Part shown: positions 14,328-62,680 of the stretch, in pieces
Position numbering within the stretch: the stretch's first letter is position 1
Layout of the letters: every line of letters begins with the position of its first letter
Source of the DNA: Candidatus Humimicrobiia bacterium
Lineage (GTDB): Bacteria; Actinomycetota; Humimicrobiia; JAHJRV01
Length of the DNA stretch: 64,000 bases
Assembly (NCBI GenBank): GCA_049647085.1
Contig: JBARXA010000016.1
Span: 310,593-374,592 of the forward strand
Direction: 5' to 3'
Translations under genes and position numbers: made by a program
Notes under the pieces: generated by a model
Told to the model about the DNA's origin: nothing
Seen by the model: only the letters and a program-made list of their open reading frames with translations
Databases searched by the model: none

Positions 14328-14407
14328 TCACATTTCAAAATATTCTAACACCAATGTATAAGAAATTTCAACTAATATAACTGTCATTCTAAATTAATTT
14401 CTATTGT

Positions 14408-14444
14408 GTCATTCTGAATGAAGTGAAGCGAAATGAAGAACCTC
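14408..14444 (+). repeat. solitary unit of the GTCATT...ATCTC repeat family
   Basis: GTCATTCTGAATGAAGTGAAGCGAAATGAAGAACCTC, related to the units at 19535, 21696, 26865, 39670 and 43486. Confidence 0.5.
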
Positions 14445-14461
14445 AGTAAAAAATATTTTTG

Positions 14462-19415: not shown

Positions 19416-19502
19416 ATTAATTCCCTAACATATTATTATCAATAATAGTTTATCACATTATAATTCTTTTTAGAAATTTAATTAAAAGATATTTTTTTTC
19501 AT

Positions 19503-19559
19503 GAAATTGCGGAGCCTGTTCCGATAGAGATTGCTCTCGAGCGAAGTGAAGGGATTGAG
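19503..19559 (+). repeat. copy of the repeat-family 5' segment plus one unit
   Basis: GAAATTGCGGAGCCTGTTCCGATAGAGATTGC aligns with GAGATTGCACAGCCTGTTGTGGGATAGATTGC at 26773. Confidence 0.55.
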
Positions 19560-19625
19560 TATTAACCTAACTTTTTAACAATACATATTATTTTATTGTA
19601 CATTAGATTATTTAAAATCCCAGAT

Positions 19626-21259: not shown

Positions 21260-21464
21260 TTTCATACCTCCTTGCATATTAAAATGATTAAGTTATTTAA
21301 AGATATTTTTACATAATTATTGATTCTATTTAAATATAATTATTATTAAATATTTTAAAAAAAGCAATTTTTATTAATTGAAAAAAGAAAAAATTTGAAT
21401 CAGTAATGTTACTACTATATTTTAAAACTAAAATTATTTATGATATCTAAAAAATATTTAGTAA

Positions 21465-21673
21465 GAGATTGCACAGTTTATTCCTTCCCCTTTCCTTCAT
21501 TCCGTTCAAGTACAGACTTTACACTCGAGCTTCAATTCCCCTCCCTTTATGGGAGGGGGTAGGGGGAGGGTTTGATGGAGATTGCCACGCCACCTTCAGT
21601 GGCTCGCAATGACAACCGGGATCTTGTTCGCAATGACAGTCAGGAACTTGCTCCGAACAGGCTGTGCAATCTC
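21465..21673. repeat. MITE-like element with 12-bp perfect terminal inverted repeats (GAGATTGCACAG / CTGTGCAATCTC)
   Basis: The terminal motif recurs at 26773 and in variant form at 19503; the interior contains the GC-rich hairpin/G4 element and GCAATGAC units. Confidence 0.55.
21533..21570 (-). repeat. GC-rich 38-nt hairpin/G4-motif repeat, copy 1 (reverse orientation)
   Basis: Exact reverse complement of the 38-mer at 62598-62635; the plus strand reads GGGAGGGGGTAGGGGGAGGG. Confidence 0.8.
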
Positions 21674-21695
21674 ATTAAAAATAGATTTTAGACTA

Positions 21696-21731
21696 TGTCA
21701 TTGCGAGGAGCGTTAGCGACATGGCAATCTC
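21696..21731 (+). repeat. unit of the GTCATTGCGAG...GCAATCTC repeat family
   Basis: GTCATTGCGAGGAGCGTTAGCGACATGGCAATCTC. Confidence 0.6.
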
Positions 21732-21788
21732 ATTTAAATTTATTATATTTAACATTTTGTTTTAGTAACAACAAAATTAAAACTTCTA

Positions 21789-26669: not shown

Positions 26670-26772
26670 AACCCCTCCTATTTTTATTAATTATATCAGT
26701 AAAATTTAAAGAATCAATATATTGCATTACCTTTTATCACAATTACAAAATGTTAAAAATAATAAATATAAA

Positions 26773-26913
26773 TGAGATTGCACAGCCTGTTGTGGGATAG
26801 ATTGCTTCGCTTACGCTCGCAATGACATACTAGAATCTCGCTCCTCGCAATGACACATTGTCAACATATATTTTTATCATTGCGAGCAAGCTCCTGGTTG
26901 TCATTCAGGAGAG
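26773..26913. repeat. cluster of GAGATTGCACAG / GCAATGAC / GTCATTGCGAG repeat units
   Basis: Starts with GAGATTGCACAGCCTGTT, identical to the terminal repeat of the element at 21465-21673, followed by at least three GCAATGAC/GTCATTGC units in both orientations. Abuts the 3' end of the aldolase gene. Confidence 0.6.
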
Positions 26914-38535: not shown

Positions 38536-40200
38536 TTAATCAAGTTCTTTCAGTCTTTTATACGCAACAGTGCCACCATTACCTGCTTCATAAACTGTTT
38601 TGAAATTTTCCTTATATTTTTCAATTATCGGGTACACATACTTCATAAACCGTTCATTTGTTTTATCCTGTATTATAAAATCAGATTTATTCAAATACTT
38701 TTTTTGTTTTTGTTCATCATCACTATATGGAAATGATATCGTCTCTCTATTAGTTATAATATAAACTAAGAAATTACTCCTGCTAAGTATTGAACTGCCA
38801 TCATAAGAATTTTCCTTTAACCAATACATTGCATCATAGAAATTCTCCCATGATTTACCATATATAAATTTTTTATTATTTTTATAATCAAGACTCTTAT
38901 TTATTACTAAATATCCACCATAGATACTTCCAGTTAAAAATATAATAAAAGTTAGTATTAAAACTGTTGATGCAAATATTTTAATTATTTTTTTTGTTGA
39001 AATTTTTAGTATTATCTCTTTAAAAAACAAGACCCCACTTGAAAAAAGAATGATTAAAATAGGAATTACGCAAACCGTAAGTCTTTCTGATTGCCATGGC
39101 CACATATGAAGACCGATAAAATAAAGTATTAAATATATTGTATAAATATATTTCTTCTTTTTCAAGAAATAAATAATTCCTAAAATAACTAAGATTATAG
39201 AAAGTAAAATTGCAATAAAATATAAATCTTTAATTTTTAATATTTCAAAAAAATTTGAAATATTCCCTTTTAAAATATCTTTTAAGCCATTTGTCAGTTG
39301 CGAAAAAACTGCTTTAAAATAATAATCGAAATTTGATTTTGCTCTTTCAAAAAATTTTATAAAATCTATATTTCCTTCGGAATAGTCACTGAGATTGACC
39401 TTGAAAAACTCACTTACATAGCTAACTTTATTTGAAATCATTGCTCTTAAGTTCCACAAAATAACTGGTACTAATGTAAATACAAAATAAATTCCTGATC
39501 TAATTTTGTTCTCACTTAAAAAGATTTGTATAAATATTGCAAGGATGATGAAAATACCAATTGGTCTGATTAAAAATGTAAATATTGAAAAAAATATCAA
39601 TAAAATAAAATTAAGATTGAGATGCTTTTTTATTCTCTCAAATAAATTATTTTTATCCTCAGAATGTTTGTCATTGTCATCCTGAGCATAGCGAAGGATC
39701 TCAAAATTAAGATTTAACCTACTACTTTCATTCTCAGAATAATTACTCTTACTATTGTTTAAGTATTTAATATTACTTTCTTCGCTAATCTCTCTATAAT
39801 TTAAGTTATAAAAATATAAAGTGATAAGAAGAAAAAGATTATATACAGTCTCTGTCATTACTTTTGATGAGAAACTTAGAAGTTCAGGATGAGTTATAAA
39901 AAAAATTGATGCCAGCAATAAAGTTAATCTATCCAGATCCTTTTTTGCTACAAGATAGAAAAATAATACTGAAAGAATAAAACATGAAACTACAATTATT
40001 TTAGATACTATTAAAATATTTGATTCAATAAATTTAGAACCTAAAATAAAATAAAAAAATGATAATATAAGTGGAAAACCTGGATATGCCTTGTAATCAG
40101 GAGGATTTTCTGGATAATTTATTAATTTAAATCCAATTCCTTGAGAAATGGATTTTCCAAGTATCATATATCTTGCATTATCACCAAAACAAGATAACAC
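38536..40200 (-). CDS. glycosyltransferase family 39/83-like membrane protein (ArnT/PMT-like); 5' end uncertain
   Basis: Polytopic membrane protein with a DNARY-type motif near the N-terminus. A predicted TM helix lies in frame upstream of the track ATG with no ATG; contains an in-frame repeat-family insert. Confidence 0.55.
   Translation of the reverse strand: MLSCFGDNARYMILGKSISQGIGFKLINYPENPPDYKAYPGFPLILSFFYFILGSKFIESNILIVSKIIVVSCFILSVLFFYLVAKKDLDRLTLLLASIFFITHPELLSFSSKVMTETVYNLFLLITLYFYNLNYREISEESNIKYLNNSKSNYSENESSRLNLNFEILRYAQDDNDKHSEDKNNLFERIKKHLNLNFILLIFFSIFTFLIRPIGIFIILAIFIQIFLSENKIRSGIYFVFTLVPVILWNLRAMISNKVSYVSEFFKVNLSDYSEGNIDFIKFFERAKSNFDYYFKAVFSQLTNGLKDILKGNISNFFEILKIKDLYFIAILLSIILVILGIIYFLKKKKYIYTIYLILYFIGLHMWPWQSERLTVCVIPILIILFSSGVLFFKEIILKISTKKIIKIFASTVLILTFIIFLTGSIYGGYLVINKSLDYKNNKKFIYGKSWENFYDAMYWLKENSYDGSSILSRSNFLVYIITNRETISFPYSDDEQKQKKYLNKSDFIIQDKTNERFMKYVYPIIEKYKENFKTVYEAGNGGTVAYKRLKELD
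39670..39702. repeat. repeat-family unit inserted in-frame within the glycosyltransferase CDS
   Basis: GTCATTGTCATCCTGAGCATAGCGAAGGATCTC; 33 nt, encodes EILRYAQDDND in a low-complexity loop. Confidence 0.5.
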
Positions 40201-40338
40201 TGGATTAAATGCTAAAATAGCTAAGAATAATGCTAAAAGAAGTATAAATATTAACTCAAGGTTTATTCTTTTAATTTATAGCTCACCTTTCTAAATAATC
40301 AAAATCTTTTTAAGTACTGATTAATATTATTTAAGTTT

Positions 40339-43485: not shown

Positions 43486-43520
43486 GAGATTGCTTCGTCG
43501 CTTACGCTCCTCGCAATGAC
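43486..43520 (-). repeat. 35-nt unit of the GTCATTGCGAG...GCAATCTC family (reverse orientation)
   Basis: Plus strand GAGATTGCTTCGTCGCTTACGCTCCTCGCAATGAC; between gap and whiA. Confidence 0.6.
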
Positions 43521-61241: not shown

Positions 61242-61392
61242 CTTTTAGAAAATAAATTAAAAGTCTCACTTTTTAATTTAGTGAAGTTATAAGTTATTAA
61301 AAATTAAATTACATTTAAGAATTAAATTAGTACAATATTGTCTTAATAATAACACAATAAAAAAAGCATTTATTAGAATTTTAAATATACAC

Positions 61393-61488
61393 CCTCCCCC
61401 TACCCCCTCCCATAAAGGGAGGGGAATCATAAGAGAAGTTCTCATTACCCCTCATATAAAGGGAGGGGAATCATAAGAGAAGTTCTCC
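61393..61488 (+). repeat. GC-rich hairpin/G4-motif repeat, copy 2, followed by a tandem partial duplication
   Basis: CCCTCCCCCTACCCCCTCCCATAAAGGGAGGGGAAT, then a roughly 45-nt unit (TAAAGGGAGGGGAATCATAAGAGAAGTTCTC...) repeated about twice. Confidence 0.8.
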
Positions 61489-61627
61489 TTACCTCTCCTA
61501 TAAAGACATTCTATATCAAATGAAAAATAAGTATTAAACTGTTAAAAAATAAAAATATTTGAGTCATACCTTGAAAATTTAATAAGAGAGGAATTGAGTA
61601 AAAATATAAATTTTTTTTAAATCTTAT

Positions 61628-62509
61628 TTATCGGGTGTACATTTTGCAAAAATTTATACTTCTTTTAAGTCGATCTTTAACTCTTCTTTTACTCCAAATG
61701 TTAAGTGCTATAGGAGAAATTTCTAAAGTTAGAAAATTGTTATAACTATTTTTTAAAATAAATTTTAAAAATTCTTTTAGTGGTATTTTTCCAATATAAG
61801 GTGGTTCATGTTTCCTTCTTTTAGTGTTGCTTATATGGATATTTATTACTCTGGATTTAAGAATATTAAAGCTATCTTCAATATTATAGCTTTTTAATCC
61901 ATGATGAGTTGTATCGAAAGTGATGAATAAATTGTGTTTCAAAACATAGTTTATTAGAACCTTTGGATCAGTAAAATGTCTCTTTCCCAAATTAACTCTT
62001 CTATCTAAAACAGTTTCAACTGTAATTAATGGTTCTAAATTGCTTTCTCTAAATTGTTTATTTAAATTTTTACTTTCATTTTTTATTTTTTCAAATTTAC
62101 TTAATTTGTAAAATGATCCCTGCTTAATCTTCGAGATAGCTTCAAGAAACTGTTTTGAATAATTATCCCACCATGGATATGAATTATCAGACCTTAGAAA
62201 AATAGGTAAATGAATAGTTACTAATTTACATCGTAGCTGACTTGCAATATTAAAGGTTAATTCTAAAGTTTTCTTAACTCCAAGTTTCCAATAAATCATA
62301 AAAAGAGGTTGGTGAACTGTATAGACTGGCAAATTATAATGATTTATAAGATTATTAAGTTTAAGAATATTTTTTTCTATATCCCCTTTTAAGCAGTTGT
62401 TATCTATAACCAACTCTAATCCATCAAATCCCACATCCTTTGCTATAGAGAAAACTTCTTTATGTGAATATGGATATAAAGAAGCTGTCGATAGTAGAAT
62501 TTTTAACAT
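61628..62509 (-). CDS. sugar phosphate isomerase/epimerase (xylose-isomerase-like TIM barrel)
   Basis: 293 aa; family assignment from overall sequence pattern, low specificity. Confidence 0.55.
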   Translation of the reverse strand: MLKILLSTASLYPYSHKEVFSIAKDVGFDGLELVIDNNCLKGDIEKNILKLNNLINHYNLPVYTVHQPLFMIYWKLGVKKTLELTFNIASQLRCKLVTIHLPIFLRSDNSYPWWDNYSKQFLEAISKIKQGSFYKLSKFEKIKNESKNLNKQFRESNLEPLITVETVLDRRVNLGKRHFTDPKVLINYVLKHNLFITFDTTHHGLKSYNIEDSFNILKSRVINIHISNTKRRKHEPPYIGKIPLKEFLKFILKNSYNNFLTLEISPIALNIWSKRRVKDRLKRSINFCKMYTR

Positions 62510-62597
62510 AATTATTAATCTATTTTAATTTAAATTTAATATTTTAAAATCTAAGAGTTCTAATAGATTTGTGGCATGGTTTCGAAGACATTTCAAA

Positions 62598-62635
62598 CCC
62601 TCCCCCTACCCCCTCCCATAAAGGGAGGGGAATTG
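62598..62635 (+). repeat. GC-rich hairpin/G4-motif repeat, copy 3
   Basis: CCCTCCCCCTACCCCCTCCCATAAAGGGAGGGGAATTG, identical to the reverse complement of 21533-21570. Confidence 0.8.
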
Positions 62636-62680
62636 AGTGAAACGAAGAGAGAAACTATGCCCAAATCTTCCAAAAGTTAT

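Follow-up and report, generated by a model that had tools for sequence, protein, structure and literature searches.

A TGTC-tagged palindromic repeat unit read in frame within the hypervariable loop of a membrane protein gene of Candidatus Humimicrobiia

Results

The unit and its reading frame

The DNA analysed here is a 64-kb stretch (the window) of contig JBARXA010000016.1 from a Candidatus Humimicrobiia bacterium (assembly GCA_049647085.1, positions 310,593 to 374,592 of the forward strand). Its minus strand carries a gene for a multi-pass membrane protein, and within this gene lies a short palindromic repeat unit that is read in frame. An earlier note on this DNA had described 33 nt of the gene as a unit of an intergenic repeat family inserted in frame into a glycosyltransferase gene. 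This sequence, GTCATTGTCATCCTGAGCATAGCGAAGGATCTC, is present at 39670-39702 on the plus strand, inside the minus-strand open reading frame (ORF) 38536..40200, and it is translated in the frame of this ORF as EILRYAQDDND, so that both position and peptide were correctly described. The repeat is a genuine member of a family, but the unit proper comprises 27 nt (39676-39702) and not 33. Features of the window and of related loci are listed in Table 1.

The unit reads GTC-ATCCT-GA-GC-ATA-GC-GA-AGGAT-CTC and is preceded by a T, giving a TGTC tag. It folds as a hairpin in which a 5-bp stem is followed by a symmetric G·A/A·G internal loop, then by a 2-bp GC clamp and the 3-nt loop ATA, and which ends in an unpaired CTC tail; of the nine stem positions, positions 6-7 form the conserved G·A/A·G mismatch (5 bp, two non-pairs and 2 bp). 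A covariance model, R1, was built from 47 distinct foreign 27-mers only, all taken from unrelated viral and genomic contigs. R1 assigned 45.9 bits to the window unit, corresponding to E = 5.7e-10 over the 64 kb, while the second-best match had an E value of 0.036, and the unit agrees with the family consensus at every conserved position. Its G+C content is 52%, compared to 24% for the surrounding stretch. No second copy of the 33 nt was found within 3 mismatches in the 64-kb window, and no canonical 27-nt unit was found away from this orthologous site in the ~210 kb examined from this lineage, which consist of the window and ~145 kb from relatives.

Translation of the gene passes through the unit uninterrupted, since its 27 nt preserve the frame and antisense frame 0 is free of stop codons. 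When folded as RNA, neither strand was better than shuffled sequences, the mRNA (antisense) strand giving -7.5 kcal/mol (z -0.49). The six bases GTCATT that stand directly before the unit may be a stutter typical of the family or may occur by chance in a loop rich in Asn and Asp. Of 288 units, 32 have GTCAT in the 45 nt upstream and 11 have it downstream, which makes it about three times commoner upstream; at the 6-nt spacing of the window copy it occurs in no other of these 288 units.

The host gene

The true start of the host gene is probably the ATT at 40275. This codon lies 7 nt after AAAGGTGAG, a good ribosome-binding site, and its use adds 25 residues (IKRINLELIFILLLALFLAILAFNP, 40201-40275, minus strand) corresponding to the first transmembrane helix of orthologues with an ATG start; in ORF calls the gene is shortened to a GTG or to an internal ATG. 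The window protein had no match in a Pfam, NCBIfam or Protein Data Bank (PDB) profile search. An orthologue with a short loop, P0017, matches PMT_2 with 23.8 bits (E 6e-5), below the cut-off of 26.1. Since this match spans the loop site, the comparison suggests that the long loop may be what breaks the Pfam match of the window protein. The earlier assignment as a gene resembling glycosyltransferase families 39 and 83 (GT39/83) agrees with the GT39 or RgtA-like labels of the sources and with the sub-threshold PMT_2 match of P0017, but it finds no profile match in the window protein itself; with names that come from source annotation only, this label is weakly supported.

Presence and absence of the unit among orthologues

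The orthologue sample comprised 18 close homologue clusters (68-100% identity) and the DNA of 17 orthologous loci, including 10 JGI loci. In the alignment, the multi-pass membrane protein is well conserved apart from one hypervariable segment, which varies from 17 to 101 residues and falls into four allele classes; the low-complexity loop anticipated in the earlier note is this length-variable segment. The unit is present, at the same position and with the same flanks (...TTAAATCTTAATTTT and AATGACAAACATTCTGA), in the U class, which contains the window, L129/L130, L001/L002, L005/L131 and L004. It is lacking from the H2 class (L003, L007, L133, L134 and L136-138), from the long class (L006/L132) and from the short loops (L008, L135 and P0015). 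The same unit is found in independent assemblies from NCBI, JGI, ENA and Logan.

The U alleles represent four lineages, which are up to 15% apart in the loop and reach a number of synonymous substitutions per site (dS) of 0.74 in the gene. In three of the four the stem is intact, with triloops ATA, ACC and ACT on the unit strand, none of which is a canonical GNA. In the fourth, L004, the copy has decayed (C to A in the stem, GTC to GTT in the tag) and R1 gives 23.2 bits. Between the window and L004, the divergence per site is 0.148 for the unit and 0.147 for its flanks and the rest of the loop. L004, which carries the unit, is separated from the window by a dS of 0.74, whereas P0005/L003, the closest orthologue outside the loop (dS 0.08), does not carry it; orthologues that lack the unit are thus found, contrary to the outcome that the earlier note had named as refuting, and the unit is an insertion, as had been proposed. 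The U alleles do not cluster in trees of the N-terminal, middle or C-terminal portion of the protein, and these trees are incongruent with the loop state. Because the U allele is common to distant strains and absent from the closest strain, the most straightforward interpretation is that the insertion is old and lies on a recombining loop allele. Outside the loop, the ratio of nonsynonymous to synonymous substitution rates (dN/dS) is 0.13-0.22. The gene is therefore functional in all loop classes, and the tolerance at the protein level claimed in the earlier note holds.

The family in bacterial genomes and viral contigs

A pattern derived from the unit, in which the three inner stem pairs and the loop were left free (GTCATNNNGAGCN{3,4}GCGAN{3,4}ATCTC), was scanned over viral contigs and over the species genomes of GTDB; the counts and percentages given for the family are among the matches listed. 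The pattern was found in more than 120 stretches of viral contigs and in more than 120 stretches of GTDB genomes, the latter from about 15 bacterial phyla and one archaeal metagenome-assembled genome (MAG). For the 596-Gb genome collection, a calculation from 18 fixed bases, four combinations of length and both strands gives an expectation of ~70 chance matches. It should be noted that ~30% of the viral matches belong to one tailed-phage lineage, which inflates the viral counts and does not explain the genome matches. Record titles name Acidobacteriota, Chloroflexota, Bacteroidota, Nitrospirota, Omnitrophota, Planctomycetota, Verrucomicrobiota, Bdellovibrionota, Desulfobacterota, Pseudomonadota, Campylobacterota, Bacillota, Gemmatimonadota, Abditibacteriota and Saccharibacteria, together with one Nanoarchaeota MAG, for which contamination of the MAG is possible. 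The G+C content of the host contigs ranges from 33 to 70%. Cultured carriers include, for example, Sporomusa malonica DSM 5090 and Hymenobacter cyanobacteriorum.

The fixed positions of the pattern (among them the AT at the start of the stem and the CTC tail) are circular for the scanned family, whereas covariation, loop preference and tag base are not. The three free stem pairs were all Watson-Crick in 168 of the 189 27-mers, and 12 complementary stem versions were observed, among them ATTCT/AGAAT, ATCCT/AGGAT, ATTCC/GGAAT and ATGTT/AACAT. When pairs were counted, 97% of the cells were paired, compared to 12-51% with slid partners, and double-sided changes were found in 45 cells, compared to 12 ± 4 in shuffles. 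Chance matches would lack such complementarity. The loop is GNA in 88%; of 293 copies, 189 have a loop of 3 nt, and in the 28-mers the loop has 3 or 4 nt. The base preceding GTC is a T in 225/293 copies (77%) and a C in 57/293 (19%).

Intergenic units lie mostly between co-directional genes (59 units), less often between convergent (21) or divergent (8) ones. With respect to co-directional neighbours, 31 are in sense and 28 in antisense orientation, and this absence of bias argues against a role as RNA. Inverted doublets, 8-80 nt apart, were found at no fewer than ten, that is at least 10, genome loci. All-against-all clustering of 1,997 neighbouring ORFs revealed no recurrent neighbour gene in the genome loci except two-component and short-chain dehydrogenase/reductase (SDR) paralogues. 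A few copies were found in annotated phage records (human faecal phages and Helicobacter canis prophages), where they carry no feature annotation. Full-text searches of the literature with DNA words of the unit and with the encoded peptides returned primers only, or nothing.

The tailed-phage lineage (L010, L017, L029 and ~30 other viral loci) shares a portal, an SU10/GP7-like capsid and other genes, and its units lie between structural genes, 10-40 nt upstream of ribosome-binding sites. A Bacteroidaceae MAG (L152, 3523-4260) carries seven tandem 105-nt repeats with one unit of the ATGTT/AACAT type in each, non-coding in all frames. On the contig binned as Nanoarchaeota (L196, 2670-2815, 37% G+C), a unit stands beside a GTCATGCTGAACTTGTTTCAGCATC hairpin of the described CGTC-2 type.

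Copies of the unit inside other genes

The position of units relative to genes was scored with crude ORF and gene calls. In viral contigs, 42 of 141 units lie inside ORFs of at least 120 aa, compared to 75% of random positions, so that units are depleted from genes and not excluded from them. Both collections together contain 26 units well inside ORFs of at least 300 aa (6-12% of units), and seven of the 26 are read in the same antisense frame as in the window, yielding peptides of the form EILRxAQxD (EILRFAQND, EILRCAQND, EMLRCAQHD etc.). Among the hosts, Pfam verified an SPP1-type portal protein, a restriction-modification enzyme of Type ISP, and a large terminase whose N and C domains lie on either side of the unit.

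The portal proteins were aligned for 23 related ORFs, including two fragments that do not cover the site. At one codon, three of them (L127, L101 and L100) contain in-frame arrays of whole and half units, each array being different, and at the same codon L125 has 8 inserted residues of an unrelated kind; the remaining full-length homologues are without an insertion and read nCCATy, similar to the tag GTCAT. From this alignment, the codon looks like a putative hot spot for insertion, at a sequence resembling the tag. Another phage protein family has the unit in a variable loop of three members (L019, L118 and L074); in close homologues the unit is absent. The three share the loop site and show a compensatory stem difference, ATTCT/AGAAT vs ATCCT/AGGAT, which reflects either independent insertions or structure-preserving evolution within the gene. 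In L074, the 3' half of the unit is partly duplicated.

Related repeats in the window

Five other units were detected in the window by a structural scan, a repeat finder and R1: a 35-nt variant present three times, a 29-nt copy and a degenerate copy, all of which are intergenic (Table 1). Together with the R1 score of the unit at 39676-39702, they bear out the earlier description of a dispersed repeat family with other local members between genes. They agree with that unit in tag, first stem bases and tail, the long variants having the form GTCATTGC...GCAATCTC around a different inner hairpin. The subtype differs: the unit in the gene is 27 nt long with an ATCCT stem, whereas the local intergenic copies are 35 nt long with an ATTGC stem and are mostly degenerate. 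In total, the 64 kb contain one canonical unit, about five variant units and several half-units.

Four intergenic regions (21440-21740, 26770-26905, 14380-14445 and 19500-19560) are mosaics in both orientations of whole units, half-units (GTCATTGCGAGC plus ~10 nt) and an additional module, ACAGGCTGTGCAATCTCAT, which is found at 21659-21680 and as reverse complement at 26774-26792 and 21456-21475. They resemble the clusters of mosaic repeats that have been described in Neisseria. The window also contains a second hairpin family that is rich in G+C (CCCCTCCCATAAAGGGAGGGG, extended by GGTAGGGGGAGGG), with copies at 21532-21575, 61391-61491 and 62593-62653; over 44 nt, copies separated by 41 kb show 100% complementarity. 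ORF 61628-62509, which encodes a TIM barrel resembling xylose isomerase, lies between two tandem 44-nt copies and a third copy. Modules of the type 'ctctcccttgatgggagagg...', similar to this second family, adjoin units of the main family in phage contigs. An Rfam search over the whole window detected only tRNAs at gathering score, and a permissive scan of the repeat cluster gave noise.

Table 1. Features of the window, and genes of viral contigs that contain units (positions for the latter are those of the named locus)
Feature	Position	Strand	Remarks
Canonical 27-nt TGTC-tagged palindromic unit	39676..39702	+	read antisense by the host gene as EILRYAQDD; hairpin fold, R1
GTCATT, partial direct duplication of the unit tag and first stem bases	39670..39675	+	encodes N-D; repeats the first five bases of the unit
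Hypervariable loop coding region, 68 aa, allele U	39610..39813	-	FYNLNYREISEE...KKHLNLN; contains the unit
Host gene, multi-pass membrane protein	38536..40275	-	listed as ORF 38536..40200 (554 aa); sources label GT39 or RgtA-like
Long-variant unit, intergenic	43486..43520	-	GTCATTGCGAGGAGCGTAAGCGACGAAGCAATCTC; tag, outer stem start and tail alike, inner hairpin different; R1 16.5 bits, E 0.036
Long-variant unit, intergenic	21697..21731	+	in mosaic repeat cluster 21440-21740; R1 E 0.12
Long-variant unit, intergenic	21578..21613	-	GTCATTGCGAGCCACTGAAGGTGGCGTGGCAATCTC; R1 E 0.12
29-nt unit, intergenic	26798..26826	-	GTCATTGCGAGCGTAAGCGAAGCAATCTA; half-units on its flanks; R1 E 1.1
Degenerate unit, intergenic	14408..14444	+	GTCATTCTGAATGAAGTGAAGCGAAATGAAGAACCTC; adjoins tRNA gene; half-unit TGTCATTCT 24 nt upstream; R1 scan
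Portal gene with unit array, L127	333-1814		24-nt period
Portal gene with unit array, L101	295-1764		24-nt period
Portal gene with unit array, L100	528-1997		24-nt period
Phage protein with unit in loop, L019	1-1671		
Phage protein with unit in loop, L118	10423-12528		
Phage protein with unit in loop, L074	3-1229		

Discussion

Taken together, these results are quite probably explained by a palindrome of the repetitive extragenic palindromic (REP) type that has become an old, tolerated passenger in a loop allele spread by homologous recombination. The unit would be one copy of a REP-type palindromic element dispersed over many bacterial phyla and phage contigs, and this copy would have been fixed in the DNA for a length-variable, low-complexity loop of a conserved membrane protein. 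The loop takes 17-101 residues, the rest of the gene is under purifying selection and the unit drifts at the rate of its flanks, as would be expected of a tolerated passenger. Between strains, it would move as part of the loop allele through homologous recombination and not by fresh transposition. Its original arrival may have been a REP-like insertion that depended on a single-strand hairpin and on a trans-acting enzyme, beside a tag-like GTCAT/CCATY. The evidence supports a passive role for the window copy, which entered or was carried into a tolerant loop and then drifted.

Several observations weigh against this explanation. No empty site, that is, U flanks without the unit, was found among the 18 protein clusters and the 10 JGI loci and, as no such allele is available, the boundaries of the insertion are not readable. 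The unit may have come within a longer segment, the U loop exceeding the short alleles by ~45 aa. For the 27-nt unit, the copy number in this lineage is drawn from 64 kb of the genome and ~145 kb of relatives, and the passenger status from equal divergence over 27 nt in four alleles; the intact stem in three of these four is compatible with weak constraint too. The AlphaFold model, built with 16 sequences, is poor and bears little on the topology of the loop or on a GT-C fold of the host protein (mean predicted local distance difference test, pLDDT, 45.7; predicted template modelling score, pTM, 0.34). As regards a mobilising enzyme, no transposase was present among the ten window ORFs scanned, and none was seen near any family copy.

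The missing empty site also bears on the possibility, which we regard as a rather doubtful one, that a longer piece of ~130 nt, comprising most of the U loop and including the unit, was captured by illegitimate or homologous recombination, for example from the mosaic clusters or from foreign DNA. Consistent with such a capture, the U loop exceeds those of L008, L135 and P0015 by the length given above, the alleles differ as whole cassettes, and the incongruence between loop state and gene tree indicates that recombination acts at the loop; the U loop moreover holds a second repeat-like fragment, GAGATTAGCGAAGAA, near its 5' end, and the local intergenic clusters are themselves mosaics of whole and half units. 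However, the clean single-codon insertions of units and arrays in phage portal and tail-like proteins, as judged against many homologues, indicate that no long carrier is needed for the family to enter coding DNA. The remainder of the U loop resembles the other alleles in being AT-rich coding sequence of low complexity, and a donor for it was not found. It is unlikely that the unit serves a function, whether as a recombination or slippage hot spot for loop diversity, as a protein-binding DNA hairpin or as a regulatory mRNA hairpin. It does sit in the most variable part of the gene, the changes among the three U alleles with intact stems are concentrated in the triloop, and one phage protein family shows a compensatory stem difference at a single site. 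Yet the alleles without the unit (H2, long and short) are equally variable in length, and the divergence of the unit equals that of its flanks. With respect to RNA, the mRNA corresponds to the antisense strand, which has U·C and not G·A mismatches and a fold no better than shuffles, and the family shows no orientation bias relative to transcription.

The earlier note had taken the in-frame copy as a sign of recent mobility, and recent, ongoing movement of an active repeat family would agree with the match of the window copy to the world-wide consensus at all conserved positions. We nevertheless consider it highly improbable, given that four U lineages share the same site and flanks despite allele differences of up to 15% in the loop and a dS of 0.74 in the gene, that one of these copies has decayed and that the unit has diverged as much as its flanks. 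In addition, the ~210 kb contain no further canonical copy, and the local intergenic copies are of a different and mostly degenerate subtype. Only the short length of the unit speaks for a chance resemblance or an assembly artefact; set against an R1 E value of 5.7e-10 and its recovery from independent NCBI, JGI, ENA and Logan assemblies, the probability of such an origin is negligible.

A core of GC-GNA-GC with a tandem G·A on one strand and an unpaired tag has the look of stable single-stranded DNA hairpins and of REP-type substrates. The conserved core and tag of the family would point, by analogy, to a single-stranded DNA hairpin as the substrate. Hirao and colleagues reportedly described mini-hairpins of the d(GCGAAGC) type with GNA triloops as unusually stable single-stranded DNA. 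The family shares with them the GC-GNA-GC core and a sheared-type G·A; the likeness is one of structural motif only, and the ATA loop of the window copy is non-canonical. Palindromic elements of Rickettsia (RPE-1), said to have been reported by Ogata et al. in 2000 in frame inside protein-coding genes, are reportedly ~100-150 bp long and restricted to the genus. Like RPE-1, the window unit is a palindrome in frame within a functional gene and adds a tolerated peptide, but it is only 27 nt long and belongs to a cross-phylum family.

The closest described elements are the CGTC-tagged REPs, CGTC-1 to -4, which include dRS3 of Neisseria and RPE-4 and RPE-6 of Rickettsia (Di Nocera et al. 2013, BMC Genomics 14:522, PMC3733652). 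In these elements, the tag is often TGTC, the stem of 8-9 bp starts with A-T, T-A, the loop has 4-5 nt and the tail is CCA; they form dimers, lie between co-directional or convergent ORFs and have no dedicated transposase (PMC3733652). The present family resembles them in its unpaired TGTC tag, in the A-T/T-A start of the stem (found also in the long variants of the window), in its ~9 stem positions, and further in its alternative complementary stems, inverted dimers, placement relative to genes, absence of a transposase beside the copies and occasional in-frame copies. It differs in that a conserved tandem G·A breaks the stem, which is not a continuous 8-9 bp, and in that the loop is a 3-nt GNA instead of 4-5 nt; it is also found in far more phyla and in phage contigs. 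A 3-nt unpaired tail is present, reading CTC where theirs is CCA, with the CTC fixed by the search pattern. A further mark of these REPs is a high copy number within the host genome, beside which the 64 kb of the window offer one canonical unit, about five variant units and several half-units. Additional file 3 of the same survey lists REPs inside genes with the peptides that they encode, one being VIPAKAGI in a membrane protein of Chlorobium and another VIAGLDPAI in an ABC transporter (PMC3733652), and none of the in-gene peptides listed there matches the GA-mismatched family. The survey pipeline dropped palindromes with more than one stem mismatch, and its authors stated that bulged members may be missed (PMC3733652).

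REP elements with a GTAG tag, and the doublets of them known as REPINs, are mobilised by REP-associated tyrosine transposases (RAYTs) (Bertels and Rainey 2011, PMC3116915; Messing et al. 2012, PMC3479197). The family has in common with the REPIN/RAYT system a short tagged hairpin, frequent inverted doublets and a presumed single-strand DNA hairpin substrate, but its tag is TGTC instead of GTAG, and no RAYT was found among the scanned window ORFs or as a recurrent neighbour. REPINs, moreover, are for the most part confined to a lineage and inherited vertically, whereas the sequence of this family stays the same from phylum to phylum.

The window feature fits a tagged REP that is read through inside a gene, a phenomenon already documented for Rickettsia RPEs and for tagged REPs. 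The GA-mismatched TGTC variant, by contrast, appears to be undescribed; it was probably filtered out by the systematic REP survey (PMC3733652), and it is absent from Rfam. Tentatively, and with more doubt than conviction, we propose that it may constitute an undescribed subclass of TGTC-REPs with a GA mismatch and a GNA triloop, near-constant at 27-28 nt and with only compensatory changes in its stem, shared by ~15 phyla, the candidate phyla radiation (CPR), possibly archaea and tailed phages. Such a subclass would land at nCCATy/GTCAT, stutter into in-frame arrays of half-units and add peptides to portal proteins, terminases and restriction enzymes.

For the window alone, the unit matters little beyond a caution for annotation, in that the insertion probably keeps the protein from matching its Pfam family. 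If the proposal of a subclass is true, it would imply a widely shared mobilising activity, carried by hosts or by phages, that acts on a single-stranded DNA hairpin. If the family is mobile across such a range, its enzyme would help to explain the spread of CGTC-type REPs, and its in-frame copies would serve as dated markers of insertion events.

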